DNA of 55,491 bases, from assembly GCA_000934665.2 (NCBI GenBank), contig JYFJ02002099.1, positions 124,001 to 179,491 on the forward strand, written 5' to 3'. Below, one piece after another: positions 23,202 through 33,747 of this stretch (the first letter of the stretch is position 1; each line of letters begins with the position of its first letter). Both the position numbers and the translations under genes were made by a program. The notes under the pieces were generated by a model. The model made no database searches, was not told the DNA's origin, and was given only the letters and a program-made list of their open reading frames with translations. Origin of the DNA: Catajapyx aquilonaris (Eukaryota).

Positions 23202-24401
23202 TCAGGAGGCAGAAGTTGATGCTTGTGAAGTTGTCTCCTGCTTCTTGTCATCGGTGTCGTTGGCTGCCTGTTCCGGTTCAACCAAATATGAATCCCATGT
23301 TTTCAGCCGCTTCTCCTTCTCCTCTGCTGTCTCTTCAATTCTGTATTTGGTCCTTCCATCCCATGTCTCTGCTTCAAGCTTAAGCCCTCCAAACCACCTC
23401 CCATGCAGAGCCTCTATGCAGGTATCTGCCTCCTCTGGTTCAGCATAGTACAACTGCACCACTCCCTCAGGATGTCGGTCATGCAATACCACCTTTTTGA
23501 GCTTCCCAAACTTTGTGCACTCTTCCCTGATGTCCTGTTTCAGTTCTAGAATCAGGGCGGCATCCTTCTCAATCTCACTCGGCCGAAATACATGCTTCAG
23601 AACTACTATACTCTCATGGCGACTTCGCTGGCCCCGCAAGCGGTCCGGCCTCCAGTCCAGCAGGCGCTCCTGAGATTTTTGGAACTTCTCCTTATCTCGG
23701 CGTTTCTTCTTACGTGGTCTCAAAGAAGGGTTGTACTCTCCTTTTGGTTTGAACTGGGCACGTTCTACATGTATAGTATGACCTCGAATGTCGCTTCCAT
23801 CCAAAATTTGTAGGGCAAGGGAGACTGACTCAACTCGGATATAAGTGCACCTCCCATCTCCCTTTGGCGTTCCCTGGTCATCAGTGTATATCTTCGCCTT
23901 AAGCTCGCCTGAGTCTGGGTCCTTAGCCACCAGCCCACACTTCTGTATCAGTTCCACAAACTCATCATGGGTCACATCCGGGGGAAGGCCGCTCACATAC
24001 ACATTCCGGTTCTGGGTCTCATCTACTTCAAACCATCCCGCTGGCTGAGGCTGTGGTATTCCTCCAGCTGCTTTCTTCTTCTTTTTGGCTGGACCTGGAT
24101 CCTCTGAAGGTGGGGCCACAGGCGAAGGATTGACGCTTCCATCTGCATGAAATCCATAGCTCAACTGGTAGCGTGCAAGGAATTCCTCGTCCACTTTGGG
24201 AAACCATGCCTTTTTTTCTGGATCCCACTGGAACATCGTCCCCTCTTGGTCCGTGTACATATATGCACCCGTCTCCGCATCGTAGGTGTATTGCTGCTCA
24301 GACGACGTCGGTTCGTCCCCTGGGCGTCCCTCATCAGGAATGTTGTCCAGGGGAGGTCCATGCGATTCTGAGGCAGCTTCTGACGACGAACACTCGGCCA
24401 T
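23202..24401 (-). CDS. HTATSF1: HIV Tat-specific factor 1 homolog (Tat-SF1/Cus2/Barricade; U2 snRNP-associated, RRM + UHM)
   Basis: FLARYQLSYGF, NRNVYVSGLP, GLVAKDP...KIYTDDQGTPKGDGRCTYIRVESVSLALQILDG, EECTKFG, LHGRWFGG; single uninterrupted 399-aa ORF. Confidence 0.95.
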   Translation of the reverse strand: MAECSSSEAASESHGPPLDNIPDEGRPGDEPTSSEQQYTYDAETGAYMYTDQEGTMFQWDPEKKAWFPKVDEEFLARYQLSYGFHADGSVNPSPVAPPSEDPGPAKKKKKAAGGIPQPQPAGWFEVDETQNRNVYVSGLPPDVTHDEFVELIQKCGLVAKDPDSGELKAKIYTDDQGTPKGDGRCTYIRVESVSLALQILDGSDIRGHTIHVERAQFKPKGEYNPSLRPRKKKRRDKEKFQKSQERLLDWRPDRLRGQRSRHESIVVLKHVFRPSEIEKDAALILELKQDIREECTKFGKLKKVVLHDRHPEGVVQLYYAEPEEADTCIEALHGRWFGGLKLEAETWDGRTKYRIEETAEEKEKRLKTWDSYLVEPEQAANDTDDKKQETTSQASTSAS

Positions 24402-24717
24402 TGTATGGGTCGATTATTCAACAGAACGTGGAACTAACGGCCACCACCATTTCTGAAGTTGGTCTGAAGTGCAACCGAAAATATTTGGCGATACTATGCC
24501 CTTATGAACACTAGCGCCGCCCTAGTGAGGAGAGAGTTCCTGTCAACAGATTGAAGAAGGAACTTCATCGGTGTTTGTTTTGTTCCCATTTTCTGTGGTT
24601 ATTGGAACAGGTACCGTAACTCTAGTTTAGAAAACTGTGGAACTGGTATTGCAGGACCAACATTTGCCATATTACATTTGTACAGAAATTAATAATTTAC
24701 TTGAAATTCATTCAGGT

Positions 24718-27609
24718 ATGGAGCATGCAGCCATGGATGTCCCGCCAGGATCAACTGACAATGGAGATGGGTCACCAGCAAAGAAGAAAAATTACAAGAA
24801 TGTGAAAAGGGTGGCCAAGGCGAAGCAGACGCAAGTGAAACCTGGTTGCTCAGAAAGTACCTGCAAAAAGAAGTGCGGCGCAAAAATTACGGAGGAATGG
24901 AGGCATGAGATTAACCGGCAGTTTTGGGCTATGAGTCTGTGCGAGAGGCAGGTTTTCATTTATGACTCCGTCAGCAACGTGCCTGTCAAGAGGAGGCGCA
25001 CCACATTTGGACCCAGTCGACGTCACAACTCGTTTGTGTACAACTTACGTGATGAGCATTGCGTCACTGTTCAAGTGTGCAAAACCTTTTTTCTAACGAC
25101 ACTAGGTTTTTCACCAGAGAATGGCGGTATAGTGAAAAGAGTCATGAAGAATTATGAGGATCCCTTGTTCGTTCCTAAGGAGGATCAGAGAGGAAAAGGT
25201 CCTAAAACGAATAAGTTAGACAGGGCTCCCATAGTGCAGCATATAGCCCATTACGTGCAGGAACATGCATCTTCTGGGCGCTACTTGCCTAGTGATGTTA
25301 CCGTTCTTGACATGGTCAGAGACTACAACATGCAACACAAGGATCGCCATGTCTCTTATGAGACTTACCGAAAGGTAGTTAAGGCCATGAACATTTCTTC
25401 TGCTAAATTGGGGCAAAATGAAAGCAAGATACATGCTACCGCTGAACATCTTGATGCTGAAATTCTTGATTCTACTAATTATTCTGAACATCCTGATTCT
25501 GAACATCCTAATTATTCTGAACATCCTGATTCTGAACATCCTAATTATTCTGAACATCCTGATTCTGAACATCCAAATTATTCTGAACATCCAAATTATT
25601 CTGAACATCCTGATTCTGAACATCTTGATGCTGGACCCGAGGAAGAGATCATGGAACCAGAATGTATATTAGAATGTGCAGAGGCTGAGCAAACCATTGA
25701 GACCATGTCAGAACCAGCCGTGCTTTTTACCAAAAAGTTGCTGACCAGGTATGGCTGCCATGTAGTTTAGGAAGGTTGTCTGTAAATCACATGATGCTGT
25801 TGGAAATGGAAGGTCTTGGCTGGGAGGGGGGGTGGGCGCCAGAGAATACCTGATCACATTGGGGAAGAGTACGTCTGCTAATGTGTCACATGATGTTTCT
25901 TGTGTGCAATACAGGGAGTTCCAAGTTCCAATTTTTAGTTATTGCTAATAGAGCCTGAAGAACGGTCTGTTAAGCAAAGAATAATGTGACATCACAACAG
26001 CCATGTTTTCTGATCATGCGCAGTAGTGTGCATGCAGAGCGATTTGGGGACATGATAGCCAGGTGAAGGCAGGCTGAATGTGATGTCATATGGTTCTTCT
26101 GTAATGGACTAGTTATTTTTTGTGGGTTGTTATGGTCCGATCCAGGTGCCCACTTACTCCCAGGTGGTCGAATATAGCTCAAGCGAAAATTCAAGTAACT
26201 AAAATGACCCACATACTTGGAATATACTGCCCAGCATAGAGTTAAACCTGTAATTTACATAGGGAATCACTCAATTCTGAAGCTTTACTGTAATAGACAA
26301 GTTTTATAACCCCAGAAAGCAGCTATTCCAAAGTAACTGATTTAAAATATACAGTTTAGAGCTTTAAAAAATTGCTTCAATTCAAACACCCTGTAAAACT
26401 GGCAGGGTCGTGAAGTTATCAGGCAATGAAGATGCAGGGGGTGTGACAGTTTCAAAGTCATTAATAGTTTAATTTTTAAAAATATCTGATACAGCCAGTG
26501 GACAGTTTTTCTAGGCAGTGTATCTGAGCAGTGATTGATATAAACTTACTGGGGGTTGCTTTAATGTTTGTAGTGGGTTTTGGCAAATGTGGGTACTTGA
26601 AATTCTGAGTGAACCTAAGTAACTGGTATTTCATGGTATAACAGGACTAACACATTGAATCTTGCTGTAATACATTTATACAGAAACTAATATAATTTAC
26701 TTGAAAATCAGGCATGTGACACCATCTACGTGGAGTTATCAGCCTGCAGCTATTGATGTCCCAGGACCAAGTTCTTCCTCAACTGACAAGATCGGAGGTG
26801 GGTCTCCAAAGAAGAAAAGTCGCAAGAATCTGTCCCTTCAGGAGAGGGTGACCAAGGAGAAGCGTACGCAAGTGAAACCTGGTTGCTCTGAAAGTACGTG
26901 CAAAAAGAGGTGCGGCACAAAAATAACAGAAGAATGTAGGCGGGTGATTAACCAGCAATTTTGGGCAATGAATCAGTGTCAGAGGCAGGTTTTCATCCAT
27001 GACTCCATCGACAATGTGCCCATCAAGAGGTCCACTACTTCTGGACCTAGTCGACGTCATCAATCGTTTGTGTACAATTTACGTGATGAGCAGTGTGTCA
27101 CTGTTCAAGTGTGCAAAACTTTTTTTCTAACGACACTAGGTTTTTCACCAGAGAATGGCAGTATAGTGAAAAGAGTCATGAAGAATTATGAGGATCCCTT
27201 GTTCATTCCTAAGGAGGACCAGAGAGGAAAAGCTCCTAAGCCCCAGCTTGACAGGACTCCCATAGTGCAGCATATAGTATCCTACCACCCTTCAATAATC
27301 CATTACGGGGGGGAGAATGCATCTTCTGGACCCTATTTGCCTAGTGATGTTACTGTTGCTGACATGGTCAAGGACTACAACATGCAACACAAGGATTGCC
27401 CTGTCTCATACGAGACGTACCGAAAGGTAGTTAAGGCTCTAAAAACAAGTGGTCCCACTACTCATCCTTCCCTCCTGGTCTTCCCTTCCTCCGACCTGTC
27501 CCCTGTTGTTTCCTTGCCTCTAACTTCCTGCAATCCCAGCCTGGAAGGGGGACATTCTGTCCCACCCTTCCTTGACAGTGGAGCTTCTCCTTCCCATTCC
27601 CCTGTTTAA
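24718..27609 (+). CDS. Transposase-derived protein with two tandem Sola-like N-terminal domains and no catalytic domain (~642 aa)
   Basis: Exons 24718-25748 and 26712-27609 join in phase 2 (AG|G). Each carries C..C.K.C...I..QFW, VCKTFFLTTLG, DQRGK, YLPSDVT, VSYETYRKVVK. Candidate 5'UTR donor at 24611; AATAAA at 27845. Confidence 0.7.
25476..25626 (+). repeat. Coding minisatellite encoding (NYSEHP-DSEHP)n
   Basis: Alternating 18- and 15-bp units aattattctgaacatcct / gattctgaacatcct; frame-preserving. Confidence 0.9.
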
Positions 27610-28360
27610 CATATGTACTTGTGGTTAGTTGGACCTAGAATATACATATGGTTTAGGTCCAGGAGGGTTATGCTGTATTGTTATGTGGACTTGTCGAAAC
27701 ATTTTTTGTCCACAATAGACAAATACCAAACATGTACCATATTGCACAGTGGCCTTATTATGTTACGTGCTACATATACAGAGAATCTGTAATGAATATT
27801 TCCTACCTGCACGATGTATTTTCTGCATGAAAAAAACAGGTTGCAATAAAACAAGCTGCAAACTTTGAAAAACCATTTAAAAACTGCTACTACTGGTTTG
27901 ATTCACAATTTCATGCCCAGGTACACTAGCTTTTTGAAGTGTCAATAGTCAGGAGATAACTTCTGTTTAGTGCCACTTGAACTGATTATTACATATGATG
28001 AGAAGTGAATACAGCTGTGTGTGACATCCTGACCACACCTAGATCATGACTGGTCCTCTCTGTAACTGCACCATTACGAAAATATCGAGCTAGAAACGTT
28101 GCTCACTAATCTTGCATTTTTAAAAGGATGGTCAACACATTTTCTTCAACAAGGACTCGTATGAAAAAATGACAGCTTCACTGGCAGTTAGGAAGATTGA
28201 TGGAAAAGGCCCTTTAAACCGATCTATTTTGAAATGGTCAGACAGTACATGCCTTCCAGCATATCCTTCAATATCATTGGTGGTGTACACATAGTGTGCC
28301 AACATACTACAGGCACATGCATCAATGGCAACTAACTTGTTCACAATGTCTCCTAAAAAA

Positions 28361-29992
28361 TTATTGGTCACAAGCAAACTCTTCCATCAAGGCAGCTCGA
28401 ATTTGAGTCCCGTTTGGCATATCATCTCCGTGGTCCACTTGGTCCCGCACCATTGAAGTACGTCCCAGGTGAATAGATGGTTTTGAAGTGTTTTCATTTT
28501 CCCAGCTGGTCCAATATTTTAAGTCTCGTTCCTCACAAATGTTGTTCAAACATACTGCCGCGGTAATTAGTTTTGGAACTTTTCCAAGTTTCAGCTCAGC
28601 ACACCTCAAGATCTGCTTCCAACGACCTTTTGTGCGTTCAAATAGGTTCTCAACTACACTTCTAGCCTGATTTAACCTACAATTAAAGTTTACTTGAGCT
28701 ACTGTCAAGGTCCCATTATCCACAAATGGCTTCATAAGCCATACTTCCAATGGAAATGACAAGTCCCCTAACAAGAGCAATGGAACCTCCACACCTTGAA
28801 TAACTTTCACTGTTGTTGGCAGTGCATTTCTCTCTGAAAGATGTTTGTACAAGCCTGTGCCTTTGAATGCAGCTGAGTTACTGCATCGACCAGGTATGCC
28901 TGCCTTTACGTAGCATGCTTTGGACTTCACATCGCTAACCACTAAAACCATGACAGACTGCCAACCTTGAGAATTGCAATATTCAGTGGTCTGGTTATCT
29001 GGTGATTGGATTTCAAAATGACAGGCACCAATTGCTCCTACAGCCATTGGAAATTGCCACTTCTGGTTAAAGGCTTCTGCCACATGATCTGCTTCCTGCC
29101 CACGAGGCCAGCTGATGTGTCGTGGAACCAGGACATTGTGAACAGCATCAATGAATCTCCTAAGTATGGTGTAAACTGTTGCCTTTCCCACACTGAATAG
29201 GGTAGCAGTTGCCTTGTACTCTGATGAAGATGCCATTGCTTTGAGAGCAATCGCCACTTGCTTGTCAACAGCCACAGCTTTCCTGAAATTTGTGTCCTTC
29301 AGATGGAGGTGTGGTTGAAGAGCATCACATATGTATTCAAATGTCTCTCGATCAACACGAAAGTGTGCCATGAAATCATCCTCTTCCAAACGTGGAACCT
29401 CTGTTTCCCACCATCCAGTATTTGACGCTTTCATCCAACCTTTTCTTAAAGGGACTCTGAAAAAAAAATATGCATGTTAATAAAACACGCTAATAAGCCA
29501 GTAAGAGCAAGAAATGCAAAAGCTACCACAATGAGAAAAAAAGGAGGTAGAAAATCTATAGGGCGTGCCGGATGTTTCACAAATTAAATTAGCAAGTTAA
29601 GAGATGTGCATAAAGTGAGTATTTCAGGAGTAAAAAGCAAGGTGTGGAAATTCACAAAGGTCACAACGATGCTGCAAGCAGAAGCTGAGCGGCAGCAGGA
29701 TGGTTGGAGTCCAGACCGATGCACTTTGGGCAGGTAAAAATATGTGATGAAAAGCATCCACCTCTAAGGCATTCACAACCGTTAATTGAATGTGCTTCCT
29801 TGGAGTTGCTGCAAATCCACCCTTGCACCACTTACGCCCCAAAAGGAAAAACACTTTCATTCGTGAAAAATCATTTGATCACCTTTCCATGGCCACTTCT
29901 TTCATGTACATTTGCAAAGCAGTCTTCATCTCTTCCCTTCTCCTCTTCTTCCTCTGTTGTAAATGGAGCAGGCCAGTCAACATCCTTTCCAT
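28361..29992 (-). CDS. PIF/Harbinger transposase-derived nuclease-like protein (HARBI1/ALP1-like, ~401 aa), first catalytic Asp lost
   Basis: Exons 29883-29992 and 28361-29456 (phase 2). FMAHFRVDRETF, VGAIGACH (canonical GAIDGTH), LLGDLSFPL, FNCRLNQARSVVENLFERTKGRW, AVCLNNICE. Confidence 0.88.
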
Positions 29993-30365: not shown

Positions 30366-31883
30366 CTAAACATGATCTGACTTACTTTTTGGTACAGCAG
30401 GTACAGCAGGTGCTGCAATAAAGTTTGACAATGACTGTGCCACAATTTTCATTTGCTCGTTGCTCTCCTCTTGTAGGACACAAAATCGTTTCATGAGTTC
30501 ATGATCTGCCTGTTGCTCTTCTCTGTGTCCTTCTAAAATGGTTATCACTTTCTCTTGGAATGTTGTTATACTAGAACTGTCTCTTCGGTGCTTTTGCTGC
30601 AAACTCTCTGAAAAATTTCAAGATAATCAGCAGATGGCATTCTATCCTGCTAATAGACAAATCCAGCCTAGGAAAGTCAAAGCAAGGCAAACTTAACCTT
30701 TCATTAGAGGTAACAAGTAGTTTTTACCACTTATTACATACCATCAAGACTTCCTTGTTAGATAATTTCCATAATAAATTCAGGTTTCTATCTGTTACTA
30801 GAGCTTAGGACACTAATGGGCTAGATTTATCACTTGAAACTCTTGTATTTTTGCATGAATGGCATGTAAGCACCATCTCTCATTACTTGACATTTATTTA
30901 ATCTTCATTATAAACAACTAACCACTACCTTTAAACAAGGGTGCCGACTGCTCACTACTTCCAGCGCATCTCGCACCTGACTCTTGAGAACAGGTTGTTC
31001 CTTCATCACTCTCAGAAGTAGGTCCAGTCTCAATATTGTCTGTGTCATCTGGGGAAATCAGTGTCTCACATGTGCCACTGGTATCAGGATTGCAGATGGG
31101 TGCAGCAGCCAAGATATCATGGATCTAAAAGTAGTGATGTCAGTCATTTACGAATAATACAAATCATGCTGAATATATTGGTCATTCATGTTGTTGATGT
31201 CTGGCCCAACACAATATGCTCAAAACAATATTGGTAAGGTCTTGAATTTTCTTGTATGTTCTATATCGTGCAATATGTTGGAACAACATTTATAAATAAT
31301 TTTTACTTTCTAATTAGTATATTTTTGCAGGTGACGGTTCACTATAACTATACCACATCTCATACCAAATGCCAGTATGGCCACCACATGTGCTTTTCAT
31401 AAAATCAGGTCACCCTCTTTTTTAGCACTATTTGTGGCATAATGCGATAACAATCACAGTGTCAATAACATTAAACAATGACTATTAATCCCTTACCACT
31501 GCATAATATCTCCAGGTGGGAGTTGACGTTTCGCTCACTGTCAGCTGATTACGTTGATAGGTGGCTTTGAGATTCTGGATCTTCTTTTGGTACTGCACAC
31601 GAGATCGAGTGTAACCCAACTCCATCATGGCATTTGAAATGTTTGAAAAAATATCCTTCTTCAGAGTCATGGAGTCGAATTTGTTAATATTCTCCCTCCA
31701 TAGTGATATGAGGTCTTCTACCTCTTTTCTTGGCCAGCGTCTCCTTTCATTGAGGTGCTCTTCAGCAGTGAGGTTGACAAGTTCATTCAAATCATCGCCA
31801 TCTGTTTCCGGAGACGATAAAATCATCGCCAAGTCCATGTCTGCATCATCCAAGTCTGACATTGTTCCAGTAATGTCTGTCAT
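30366..31883 (-). CDS. Myb/SANT-like (trihelix, MSANTD type) DNA-binding protein, probable Harbinger second protein (~276 aa)
   Basis: WPRKEVEDLISLW...IFSNISNAMMELGYTRSRVQYQKKIQNLKATYQR...WRYYAV|IHDIL. Exons 31497-31883, 30923-31124, 30366-30607 total 831 nt in frame; coiled-coil-like C-terminus. Confidence 0.82.
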
Positions 31884-33747
31884 GTTGATCCTGCTGCACA
31901 CCTAGCAGATCCTTCACTTCTCTAACAATAAGTATGGAGCCTGCACCTACTTCCAAGCTACTACTCCGCTCTTTTACTGGAGAACTTTGGTGGTATTTTA
32001 TGCTTCCTATCTGCACACCCTCAATACTCTTCGGCTCTCCATGCACCAAATCATCATCAAATGTAGTGCAGGTAAAATCAGCTCAACAGTACGAAAGGAG
32101 GACGCTCAGCCACCACATTCTTCCGCAACTGTCACCAGCAACGACCTGTTACGGAAATATAAATGAAAAGGGTCAACACCTGGTAAACTATTTGTAATAA
32201 GGAATTCCCATGTGTGTATAGGTGCCAAATGTTCAATACAAATTAGCAAGGGCTAATAACTGAAATTAGTCAATATTTGCCCAGTGAATGAAGCGAATTA
32301 GTCCGTCTGTTATCTAACAATATTGCTTGTAATAAAATGAATTCTCAAGGAGAGCTACAGGAAAAACAGTTGACGTTACATTACTTGCATATTTTCGCAT
32401 AAAACTTTCATAACATTACATAAACCAGATGCTAAATCAAGTTGACAGCACTGCCATGTAATCCCTTGTAATTGCTAACCGTGTGCTAACAGTCGCTCCC
32501 AAAATTGACCCGTCATTACACAAGCACACTTCCTGCACACTGCAACCTTACCATACCCGGTAAATTACCATTATCCTTAAATTAAACCGAATTAATGCGA
32601 TCACATGTTGTCATCGATTGGCTTTTGGCAACTTGTTTGGCAAGAAAAAAATAGTTATCGCTGTATGGCATCACACCATGAACCGTGTTAAAGCCTTGGT
32701 TAAAGCAGATAAGATAACGGCCATTATTCATGACTCATGAGTGTCCTAAATTACAACCAAAAATATGATTGCTTCTCATATGACCGCTGATTAACACGCG
32801 ATAATTAAAGAAACGATAATGACAAGTAGCTATTTATAACCGCTTTGTCTCATAAGCAGCTTGTGGAAAACAAAAGCGTGTAGCACCGCGCATTTTTTTT
32901 TTCTTCCCCCGCTCTAAATGGACGGCTGTGATTGGTTGATCTGATGGCAACCCTGAGGCTGTGTGGCATGGAGGCCAACAGCAGGAGATAAATATTTCCC
33001 CACGAGACTACTGCAGGCAGAGAGAGGCTGGAGAAGTGGGAAAGAGTTCCGGGCACAGATGCGACGCAGGAGGAAGCAACGGTGCACCTGAGGAGAGGAC
33101 TAGCATCAGCCAGGGTAAATTGCATTGAACAGTACGCTGCCGTGGGAAGGACAGTGCAGCTGCATGCTGACACACAATATTATTGTGGGGTTTGGACTGA
33201 TTTGATGTGTGCCGCACTGGAAAGAAACATACATGCAGTGCGTTTTCTGGCAAAGCATGTTGTGGCTCAGCCGCATATTTTGGATGTGGAATCATACGGC
33301 TGCATTTTTTTTTTCCTAAAGTGAGACGAGGTGTCGAGAGGCTTTGACTGCAAGAGAGGGGGAGAGTACGCACTAACAACATTTTTCACGTCGCATGCTT
33401 AGTACACACTTTGCTAATTAATTACACACACAAAATGTTGGAGGGTGCTGCAAGTGTGCCACATTTTCCGGATCGACATCAGCCACTCACCTCTAATACA
33501 GTCATTGAACTGCAAATGCCACATGTAAACTCCAGAGCCAGTTATTGACCACAGGTTTACACCTGCTGCTAATAGAAAATGCAGGCAGCTGGCCTAACTA
33601 AAGAGAACTACTTATTTATTTTATTATCCCATGCTCAAGCTGTTGGCTTGTTTGGCGGGACTAAAGAGAACTATTGCATCTGTTTGTATGAATAGTGTTT
33701 TAACAATGCATAACATGTTTTTCTCCGCCTGCCTAGGTAACGAGTGG

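Follow-up and report, generated by a model that had tools for sequence, protein, structure and literature searches.

A spliced gene of Catajapyx aquilonaris that may derive from a DUF7869-type transposase and carries its N-terminal domain in two copies

In this study we analysed a 55,491-nucleotide stretch of the Catajapyx aquilonaris genome (contig JYFJ02002099.1, positions 124,001 to 179,491 of the forward strand; hereafter the window, numbered from its first letter). On balance, we favour reading the locus around 24718 to 27609 as an expressed, transposase-derived gene which retains only an N-terminal domain, present in two copies, and which uses two alternative donors spliced into a common acceptor at 26712. 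The gene is expressed and spliced; it is also immobile, the catalytic part having been lost. In the scheme that we propose, a DUF7869-type transposase would have lost its zinc motif and catalytic domain and kept a basic domain of about 190 aa with four invariant cysteines, and the gene would be transcribed divergently from HTATSF1, with a spliced 5ʹ UTR. A local DNA duplication would then have placed a second domain exon about 2 kb downstream, along with its acceptor and a portion of the intron before it; purifying selection would have kept both reading frames open, less strictly in copy 2. Use of the donor at 25374, which is documented by RNA, would yield a 233-aa one-domain protein with copy 2 in the 3ʹ UTR, and use of the predicted donor at 25748 would yield a 642-aa protein composed of a domain, an acidic repeat linker and a second domain.

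Organisation of the locus and its transcripts

The divergent neighbour is an HTATSF1 orthologue, a single long ORF on the reverse strand (23202..24401, ATG at 24401-24399), which is matched by human HTATSF1 chains at E 4.6e-103, includes two RRM_1 stretches according to Pfam and is covered by an RNA contig at 24300-24391. The start codons of the two genes lie 317 bp apart, in agreement with the head-to-head arrangement at about 320 bp that had been proposed from the sequence. The RNA evidence consists of contigs of one public run (X1, of unrecorded type) with a depth of 2-8, and the run contains 41% of the sampled words from the locus. The contigs leave uncovered 24424-24547, 24920-25283, 25664-26035 (which includes the donor at 25748), 26532-26655 and 26859-26995, and for these parts the run argues in neither direction.

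All features of the gene itself lie on the forward strand. The 5ʹ UTR exon (24560..24610) was taken to start at the first contig-covered base; the contig covers 24560-24607 and joins 24713, and shifting this joint by +3 places it at 24610^24716, with GT..AG borders, which is the junction expected in the original prediction. Intron 1 thus occupies 24611..24715, and its 3ʹ part (24632-24715) lies inside the duplicated unit. Judging from the sequence, a start codon in good context is created at this splice junction. Exon 2 in its short form (24716..25374, ATG at 24718) encodes domain copy 1 and terminates at the donor seen in RNA, AAG^GTAGTT, in phase 0. The predicted extension of this exon (25375..25748), which is intron in the observed form, would end at the donor CAG^GTATGG in phase 2, the ORF being open to 25770; it consists of the decayed tail of the transposase, which extends to about 25450, followed by an in-frame tandem repeat of 15/18/33 nt (25442-25633) and then by an acidic stretch. 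Intron 2 runs over 25749..26711, or from 25375 in the observed form, and an interspersed repeat is located in it at about 26136-26178, where the contigs show loose ends. The last exon (26712..27850) has an RNA-seen acceptor and is covered by contigs at 26710-26858 and, contiguously, at 26996-27836. It holds the ORF of copy 2 (26713-27606, stop at 27607-27609), and the gene has its own AATAAA at 27845-27850, as had been noted from the sequence.

The joint 25374^26712, also of the GT..AG type, was found in one contig, which aligns without a mismatch over 89 bases on one side and 149 on the other. This is the sole contig reaching the acceptor at 26712, and it comes from the phase 0 donor at 25374, not from 25748. 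In the joined transcript 14 out-of-frame codons are followed by a TGA at 26754-26756, giving the one-domain protein of 233 aa. The original prediction of a single 642-aa protein made by splicing 25748^26712 therefore stands in part: the arithmetic is right (the ORF is of 642 aa) and the acceptor is used, but the observed donor is 25374, from which copy 2 is read out of frame. We also noticed that the sole contig over 24831, at a depth of 2.6, misses one base there; the gap could reflect a sequencing error or an allelic difference, and if real it would leave an ORF of only 39 aa.

The domain, its family and the loss of mobile parts

Each copy corresponds to the basic N-terminal domain, about 190 aa long, of a large animal family whose full-length members carry DUF7869 downstream. 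An exhaustive phmmer search returned 1873 relatives at E<=0.001, with E-values down to 1.8e-68, the nearest of them only about 45-47% identical to the window gene, and a family profile built from 38 relatives gave 235.4 bits for copy 1 and 234.4 bits for copy 2. PF25273 (DUF7869) was detected at E<=0.001 in 18 of the 36 long relatives scanned (above the curated cut-off in 14 of these 18), which bears out the earlier description of the motifs as a transposase N-terminal set associated with DUF7869. The domain has no Pfam family in common among its members, as any family matched at most two of the 40 scanned, and neither copy had a Pfam match.

Four invariant cysteines (three clustered and one in VCK) are kept in both copies, and so are the motifs FFLTTLG, RGK, YLPSD and SYExYRK. 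The near-invariant stretch HIESFxPxxSHYRREHAPN is degraded: both copies are devoid of RR and of the P of AP, copy 1 is short of seven residues of the stretch, including an invariant P, and in copy 2, which retains this 7-aa segment, the H of EH is replaced by N. The uncharacterised putative transposases with PF25273, which occur in many animals (e.g. P0032, P0063 and P0025), are 35-47% identical in the N-terminal domain and have the cysteines in the arrangement C-x3/4-C-x3-C...VCK as well as the four motifs named above. In them, unlike in the window gene, the domain is followed by a CxxC...H motif and then by a catalytic region of about 300 aa, in which acidic residues are conserved (D430, D510 and E545/E561 in A4).

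In the window these parts are gone, as had been claimed for both the CxxC motif and the catalytic domain. A tblastn search of the 55 kb with 13 full-length relatives returned solely the two N-domains at E<0.1, and no CxxC...CxxC..H motif follows either copy: copy 1 keeps NIS.AKLG without cysteines and copy 2 diverges. We found no terminal inverted repeats around the copies, the only inverted pairs being three short ones (17-20 nt, 85-88% complementary), none of which brackets a copy.

The motif set had been assigned to the Sola type, an assignment that we treat as an assumption. The Sola superfamily (Sola1-3) comprises animal transposons with a DDD transposase and a 4-bp target-site duplication, and the full-length relatives of the window gene do have conserved acidic residues. 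In the literature searched, Sola is named only in lists of superfamilies. The term DUF7869 was absent from the literature searched, and no host gene from this transposase family was described there, subscription papers being thinly covered.

Duplication and coding signal

The two ORFs proved to be paralogous, as proposed, with 173 of 237 residues identical (73%; BLASTP, E 8e-119), a DNA identity of 85% and collinear repeat blocks (D2-D8) spaced 1980-2052 bp apart. According to the repeat blocks and the DNA alignment, the duplicated unit extends over 24632..25385 (copy 1) and 26612..27437 (copy 2). It takes in about 85 bp of the upstream intron and the acceptor, both covered by non-coding blocks (D8, 24632-24653 and 26612-26633; D6, 24692-24717 and 26692-26717), and it ends about 11 nt past the YRK codon in both copies, at 25385 and 27437 (block D4). 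The predicted inclusion of intron and acceptor, the predicted ends at or just after the YRK motif and the predicted continuation of copy 1 were thus all recovered. Since copy 1 remains family-like (NIS.AKLG) beyond the point at which copy 2 diverges, the end of the repeat is a duplication breakpoint and not the terminus of an element. In the family tree the copies are sisters with 100% support, with many derived residues in common, and they group with single-domain sequences of the transposon type.

The dN/dS ratio between the copies was 0.33 (95% CI 0.21-0.51; dS 0.385, 218 codons), well below 1, and part of this signal may stem from a time when the element was still mobile. All five coding indels between the copies are multiples of three (9, 9, 3, 3 and 21 nt), and the non-coding indels are of 10, 8, 2 and 2 nt. 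The codon-usage score was 0.24 and 0.21 for the copies in frame versus about -0.5 out of frame, and on these sequence features both copies look protein-coding. Neither the 54-aa tail of copy 2 nor its initial 29 codons showed a coding signal by codon usage. Copy 2 has also evolved faster, with 14 unique changes versus 5 (Tajima test, chi-square 4.26) and a branch length of 0.24 versus 0.06 for copy 1; the upper bound of its own dN/dS comes to about 1 when no changes are assigned to copy 1, and a neutrally evolving copy would stay free of stops with P 0.03-0.15, which makes its open frame only mildly unlikely by chance. The exhaustive search yielded nothing more than 47% identical that could serve as an orthologue, and word-index searches with copy 1 (10 and 7 matches) gave none above 42%. 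With no closer sequence for a comparison across species, we take the domestication proposed from the sequence as putative. The nearest relative, P0012, was considered as an orthologue and dropped, as its N-terminal extension is common to the transposon-type sequence P0189 (51% identity).

One-domain and two-domain products

In copy 2 no ATG occurs in frame until residue 86. Independent translation was ruled out on this ground, and translation of this copy would require a fusion. Only two donors in 25300-25800 match the consensus at 7/9 or better, namely 25374 and 25748, each at 7/9, and the latter is in phase (phase 2) with the ORF of copy 2. The 37 codons that precede it (25636-25746) are coding-like in that frame only, to a degree equalled by 0.5-1.5% of 21,560 control windows. 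Indirect evidence thus favours a 642-aa form, given a coding-like exon extension which ends, in the right phase, at the only other good donor. Two further routes were discarded: an acceptor at 26743 would bring copy 2 into frame with the donor at 25374, but is absent from the X1 contigs, and internal out-of-frame ATGs at about 25265-25358 that read into copy 2 are placed behind many upstream ATGs.

It could be argued that the 233-aa protein is the only product and that copy 2 is a duplicated exon slowly decaying in the 3ʹ UTR, its open frame being a leftover. The sole observed junction leaves copy 2 out of frame, and the roughly threefold faster evolution of this copy, its tail and first codons devoid of coding signal, a chance of remaining free of stops that is not tiny and a dN/dS bound near 1 all agree with such a decay. 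We nevertheless consider it unlikely, although worth keeping in mind: copy 2 equals copy 1 on the family profile, keeps the four cysteines and the 7-aa segment and has coding-like codon usage, every one of the five coding indels is in frame, and the extension to 25748 itself has coding character and a donor of the matching phase. Most of the latter points, together with the missing early ATG of copy 2 and the existence of two-domain relatives with low-complexity linkers, could be taken further to mean that the gene makes chiefly or exclusively the 642-aa protein and that the 25374 junction is a minor or aberrant splice. This we regard as improbable, as the RNA contains the 25374^26712 joint instead, without a mismatch in its 89 and 149 bases, and this donor fits the consensus equally well.

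A different possibility is that the locus has no host function and consists of defective transposon relics, either two insertions or one that was duplicated, transcribed incidentally through the activity of the HTATSF1 promoter, with a low dN/dS inherited from mobile life. It would fit with the missing orthologues and a nearest relative at 47% identity, with the near-invariant family residues lost in both copies, with the possible frameshift allele at 24831 and with the shared ends, which are expected for copies of a deleted element. However, no inverted repeats flank the copies, the homology of copy 1 to the family runs beyond the repeat end as at a duplication breakpoint, and the copies are sisters which share many derived residues; all coding indels that arose after the split are in frame, and splicing creates a start codon in good context. 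We therefore give this explanation little credence, and retain the expressed two-copy gene with alternative donors as the preferred reading.

Predicted fold and DNA binding

The domains are basic (pI 9.6-9.9) and the linker is acidic (pI 4.4). The proposed structure prediction gave confident models of the domains (pLDDT 89 and 91). Foldseek returned no match in the PDB at E<=0.001, either for the whole domain or for its N-terminal sub-domain, and a profile search of PDB sequences returned none. In a wide structural search, residues 1-138 reached a best Z of 3.2, and the C-terminal sub-domain (residues 139-211) was weakly similar to winged-helix DNA binders (Z 4.3-5.4), both values being below the level that the tool treats as meaningful. 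Similarities of this strength cannot establish that the domain binds DNA. The analogy with transposases, whose N-terminal domains bind the element ends, makes DNA binding probable for this protein, with relics of its transposon family as possible targets. With a confidently predicted fold that has no clear relative among solved structures, the domain would be worth solving.

Comparison with related and known systems

Host genes made from the DNA-binding parts of transposases, such as THAP, ZBED, the pogo-derived CENP-B and HARBI1/NAIF1, are a known source of new regulators. The window gene resembles them in that mobility was lost and the nucleic-acid-binding end of a transposase was kept, whereas its domain belongs to a different family, outside Pfam and with no clear solved-structure relative.

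Within the family, arrays of 2-6 domain copies without a catalytic region occur in gastropods, a bivalve and Culex, and the order of their domains is conserved between species, with position-wise orthology. They include Aplysia californica LOC101856214 (5-6 copies), proteins of Physella, Elysia, Plakobranchus and Mercenaria (4 copies), the adjacent Culex quinquefasciatus genes B0WBN8 and B0WBN9 (2 copies each) and the transcript-derived P0006, P0008 and P0009 (2 copies). Like the proposed long form, these arrays have several domain copies, low-complexity linkers and no DUF7869. They are, however, not orthologues of the window gene, whose copies are each other's closest relatives, and the window duplication is the younger (dS 0.385), with an in-frame joining that is predicted. 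The multi-domain relatives in molluscs and a mosquito suggest that the same solution arose several times.

It is conceivable, though we would not count on it, that the choice of 5ʹ splice site switches between the 233-aa one-domain and the 642-aa two-domain form, and that the locus is a young case of a broader and hitherto undescribed trend, in which animal hosts have repeatedly retained this domain in arrays of two to six copies that lack the catalytic part. If so, multivalent DNA recognition would be the selected property. Should the long form exist, the gene would be a new multivalent binder in the making, assembled by exon duplication, a repeat-expanded acidic linker and splice choice; if only the short form is made, the locus would be an ordinary lineage-specific expressed transposase relic. 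A tandem pair of the same domain, as in the window, is also found in Engraulis LOC134450441, P0004 and P0007, which, unlike the window gene, retain the catalytic region and have different duplication boundaries.

Organization of the duplicated locus

In our best reading, the gene adjoining HTATSF1 is a lineage-specific, expressed transposase derivative that lacks the catalytic part and carries a duplicated domain exon; it probably has two splice forms. The original prediction described two paralogous ORFs duplicated together with their upstream acceptor region, and this was largely right. In the ORF listing, copy 1 spans 24631-25770 (+) and copy 2 spans 26671-27609 (+); their proteins are identical at 173 of 237 residues (BLASTP, E 8e-119) and their DNA is 85% identical. 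The repeat consists of collinear blocks spaced 1980-2052 bp between the copies, which begin in non-coding DNA (24632/26612), include the acceptor region (24692-24717/26692-26717) and end at 25385/27437, eleven bases past the codon for K of YRK. Beyond this 3' edge the family consensus (NIS.AKLG) is kept by copy 1 and not by copy 2, and the edge is thus a duplication breakpoint rather than a mobile-element terminus. Inverted repeats bracketing a copy were not found, and the 1.2 kb between the repeat units has no counterpart downstream of copy 2. The HTATSF1 orthologue (23202-24401, -; E 4.6e-103 against the human protein) has its ATG 317 bp from that of the gene (24718), and an AATAAA is located at 27845 (+), downstream of the copy 2 ORF.

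We also noticed that the HTATSF1 orthologue is one uninterrupted 399-codon ORF with no intron inside it. At 25442-25633 lies an in-frame tandem repeat with roughly 5-12 copies of 15-, 18- and 33-nt units; its translation is an NYSEHPDSEHP repeat that is acidic and rich in His. In intron 2, three contigs (90-95% likeness) end at 26136-26178 with unrelated flanks, indicating an interspersed repeat; shortly before it, at 25977-26098, two inverted 20-nt segments flank a spacer of 82 nt.

Transcripts and splice forms

The RNA evidence came from contigs of one public run, its type not on record, which we compared over 24300-28000. Two GT..AG joints were present. One was the predicted 5'UTR intron, 24610^24716. 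The other, 25374^26712, has its donor directly after the YRK codons and is matched over 89 bases on one side and 149 on the other, with no mismatch; of the proposed junction 25748^26712, the acceptor was therefore seen, joined to donor 25374 and not to 25748. The observed join brings a phase 0 donor to a frame needing phase 2. Translation would then run through 14 other codons to a stop at 26754-26756, which predicts a 233-aa one-domain protein and leaves copy 2 in the 3'UTR. For the one transcript form seen, a single in-frame 642-aa protein is thus contradicted. Another contig was unbroken over 26996-27836; the AAG|GTAGTT of the copy 1 donor also occurs in copy 2 (27434/27435), where this contig passes through unspliced. 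At 24831 one base was missing in the single covering contig (depth 2.6); either an error or an allele could account for this, and a real deletion would shorten the ORF to 39 aa.

The arithmetic of the 642-aa form, with donor 25748 and acceptor 26712, is correct. Only 25374 and 25748 match the donor consensus at 7 of 9 positions within 25300-25800, and the phase of 25748 is the one required by copy 2. The copy 1 ORF stays open through the tandem repeat and closes 22 nt past donor 25748, and the 37 codons before this donor have a coding score in that frame only; 1.5% of 21,560 control windows scored as high, and 0.5% also had the frame contrast. No in-frame ATG precedes residue 86 of copy 2, so fusion is required if it is translated at all. 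We consider the odds to lean slightly towards an in-frame product with both domains being made; the stronger claim, that the 642-aa form is the gene's product, is much less probable.

The main rival explanation has the short form as the sole product, with copy 2 in decay. Between the copies, dS was 0.385 and dN 0.126, and the resulting dN/dS of 0.33 (bootstrap 95% interval 0.21-0.51; Nei-Gojobori, 218 aligned codons) was well below 1; a value near 1 would have spoken against the original prediction. Indels in the coding part (n=5) were of 9, 9, 3, 3 and 21 nt, and those in the shared non-coding part of 10, 8, 2 and 2 nt. Both copies scored equally against a profile from 38 relatives and had coding-like codon usage in the annotated frame (0.24 and 0.21 bits per codon; about -0.5 in other frames) under a model trained on 2250 codons from other genes in the window. 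Against full constraint stand several observations, most of them on copy 2. Copy 2 evolved faster, with 14 unique changes versus 5 in copy 1 (chi-square 4.26, outgroup P0012, a relative from another organism) and tree branch lengths of 0.24 versus 0.06; under neutrality its stop-free frame would be only slightly improbable (P 0.03-0.15); near-invariant residues were lost in both copies; and the last 54 and first 29 codons of the copy 2 frame were without coding signal.

Domain family and the lost catalytic part

Neither copy had a Pfam match at E<=1. Exhaustive phmmer with copy 1 residues 35-225 retrieved 1873 proteins at E<=0.001, of which 23 also reached E<=1e-30; identity to the best relative was only 45%. 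We scanned 36 of the 150 listed relatives against Pfam, choosing multi-match proteins and long single-match proteins. PF25273 (DUF7869) was found in 18, about 200-250 residues C-terminal of the N-domain and above the curated cut-off in 14; the other 18 were all multi-domain. In the alignment of full-length relatives (n=24), the N-domain is followed by a CxxC...CxxC..H motif and then a region in which acidic residues are conserved (D430, D510 and E545/E561, numbered as in P0032, the first row). The architecture and the family assignment given in the original prediction thus hold at the DUF7869 level. The literature search returned no paper mentioning 'DUF7869', and Sola, the superfamily suggested in the original prediction, figured in the literature passages only as one entry in superfamily lists. 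The N-domain does not correspond to a Pfam family, as no family was common to more than 2 of 40 members scanned; Arthropoda was the commonest taxon in the Atlas clusters nearest to it. With 13 full-length relatives as queries, tblastn over the whole window detected the two N-domains and nothing else.

Four family-invariant cysteines are kept in both copies, and near-invariant residues of the SHYRREHAPN stretch are lost in both, with seven residues missing there in copy 1. The family features lost in the window copies were lost independently in P0012 (316 aa), which is without the RR and P of SHYRREHAPN, the H of RGKH and the CxxC cysteines; its transposon-type relative P0189 retains them.

AlphaFold models of the domain, built on a 40-row alignment, were confident (pLDDT 89.0 for 211 residues, 91.3 for the first 138). 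Foldseek against PDB gave no match at E<=0.001. In a wide structural search, residues 139-211 reached Z 4.3-5.4 to winged-helix/helix-turn-helix DNA binders and residues 1-138 at most 3.2, both below the tool's meaningful level. Both domains have a basic pI (9.9 and 9.6), and the segment between them has an acidic one (4.4). The basic pI, the cysteines and the usual role of transposase N-termini suggest that the domain may bind DNA.

Multi-domain relatives and neighbouring elements

More than one domain copy was present in 27 of 170 proteins (168 relatives and the window copies P0001 and P0002). Some, such as P0004 of Engraulis and P0007, have two domains followed by the catalytic part and are apparently mobile. 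Among those without it, proteins of Aplysia, Physella, Elysia, Plakobranchus and Mercenaria carry 4-6 domains, and two adjacent Culex genes and several transcript-derived proteins have two. Among the two-domain proteins and gastropod arrays, first domains were closest to first domains across proteins, and later positions likewise, indicating that these architectures are old and conserved. In the tree the window copies were sisters (support 100) placed among single-domain, transposon-type sequences; the window arrangement, if functional, would be of independent and recent origin.

The gene is followed after 0.5 kb by an intact 371-aa DDE_Tnp_4 ORF (Harbinger/PIF-type nuclease, E 3.5e-22; 28364-29476, -), with a Myb_DNA-bind_4 ORF (E 7e-15; 31488-31901, -) 2 kb beyond on that ORF's strand; the two make up a Harbinger element or, alternatively, a domesticated pair of the HARBI1/NAIF1 kind. 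A BTB/POZ-domain exon is located at 1801-2469 (+; E 1.9e-24), its sequence presumably recalling the arthropod tramtrack-type BTB.
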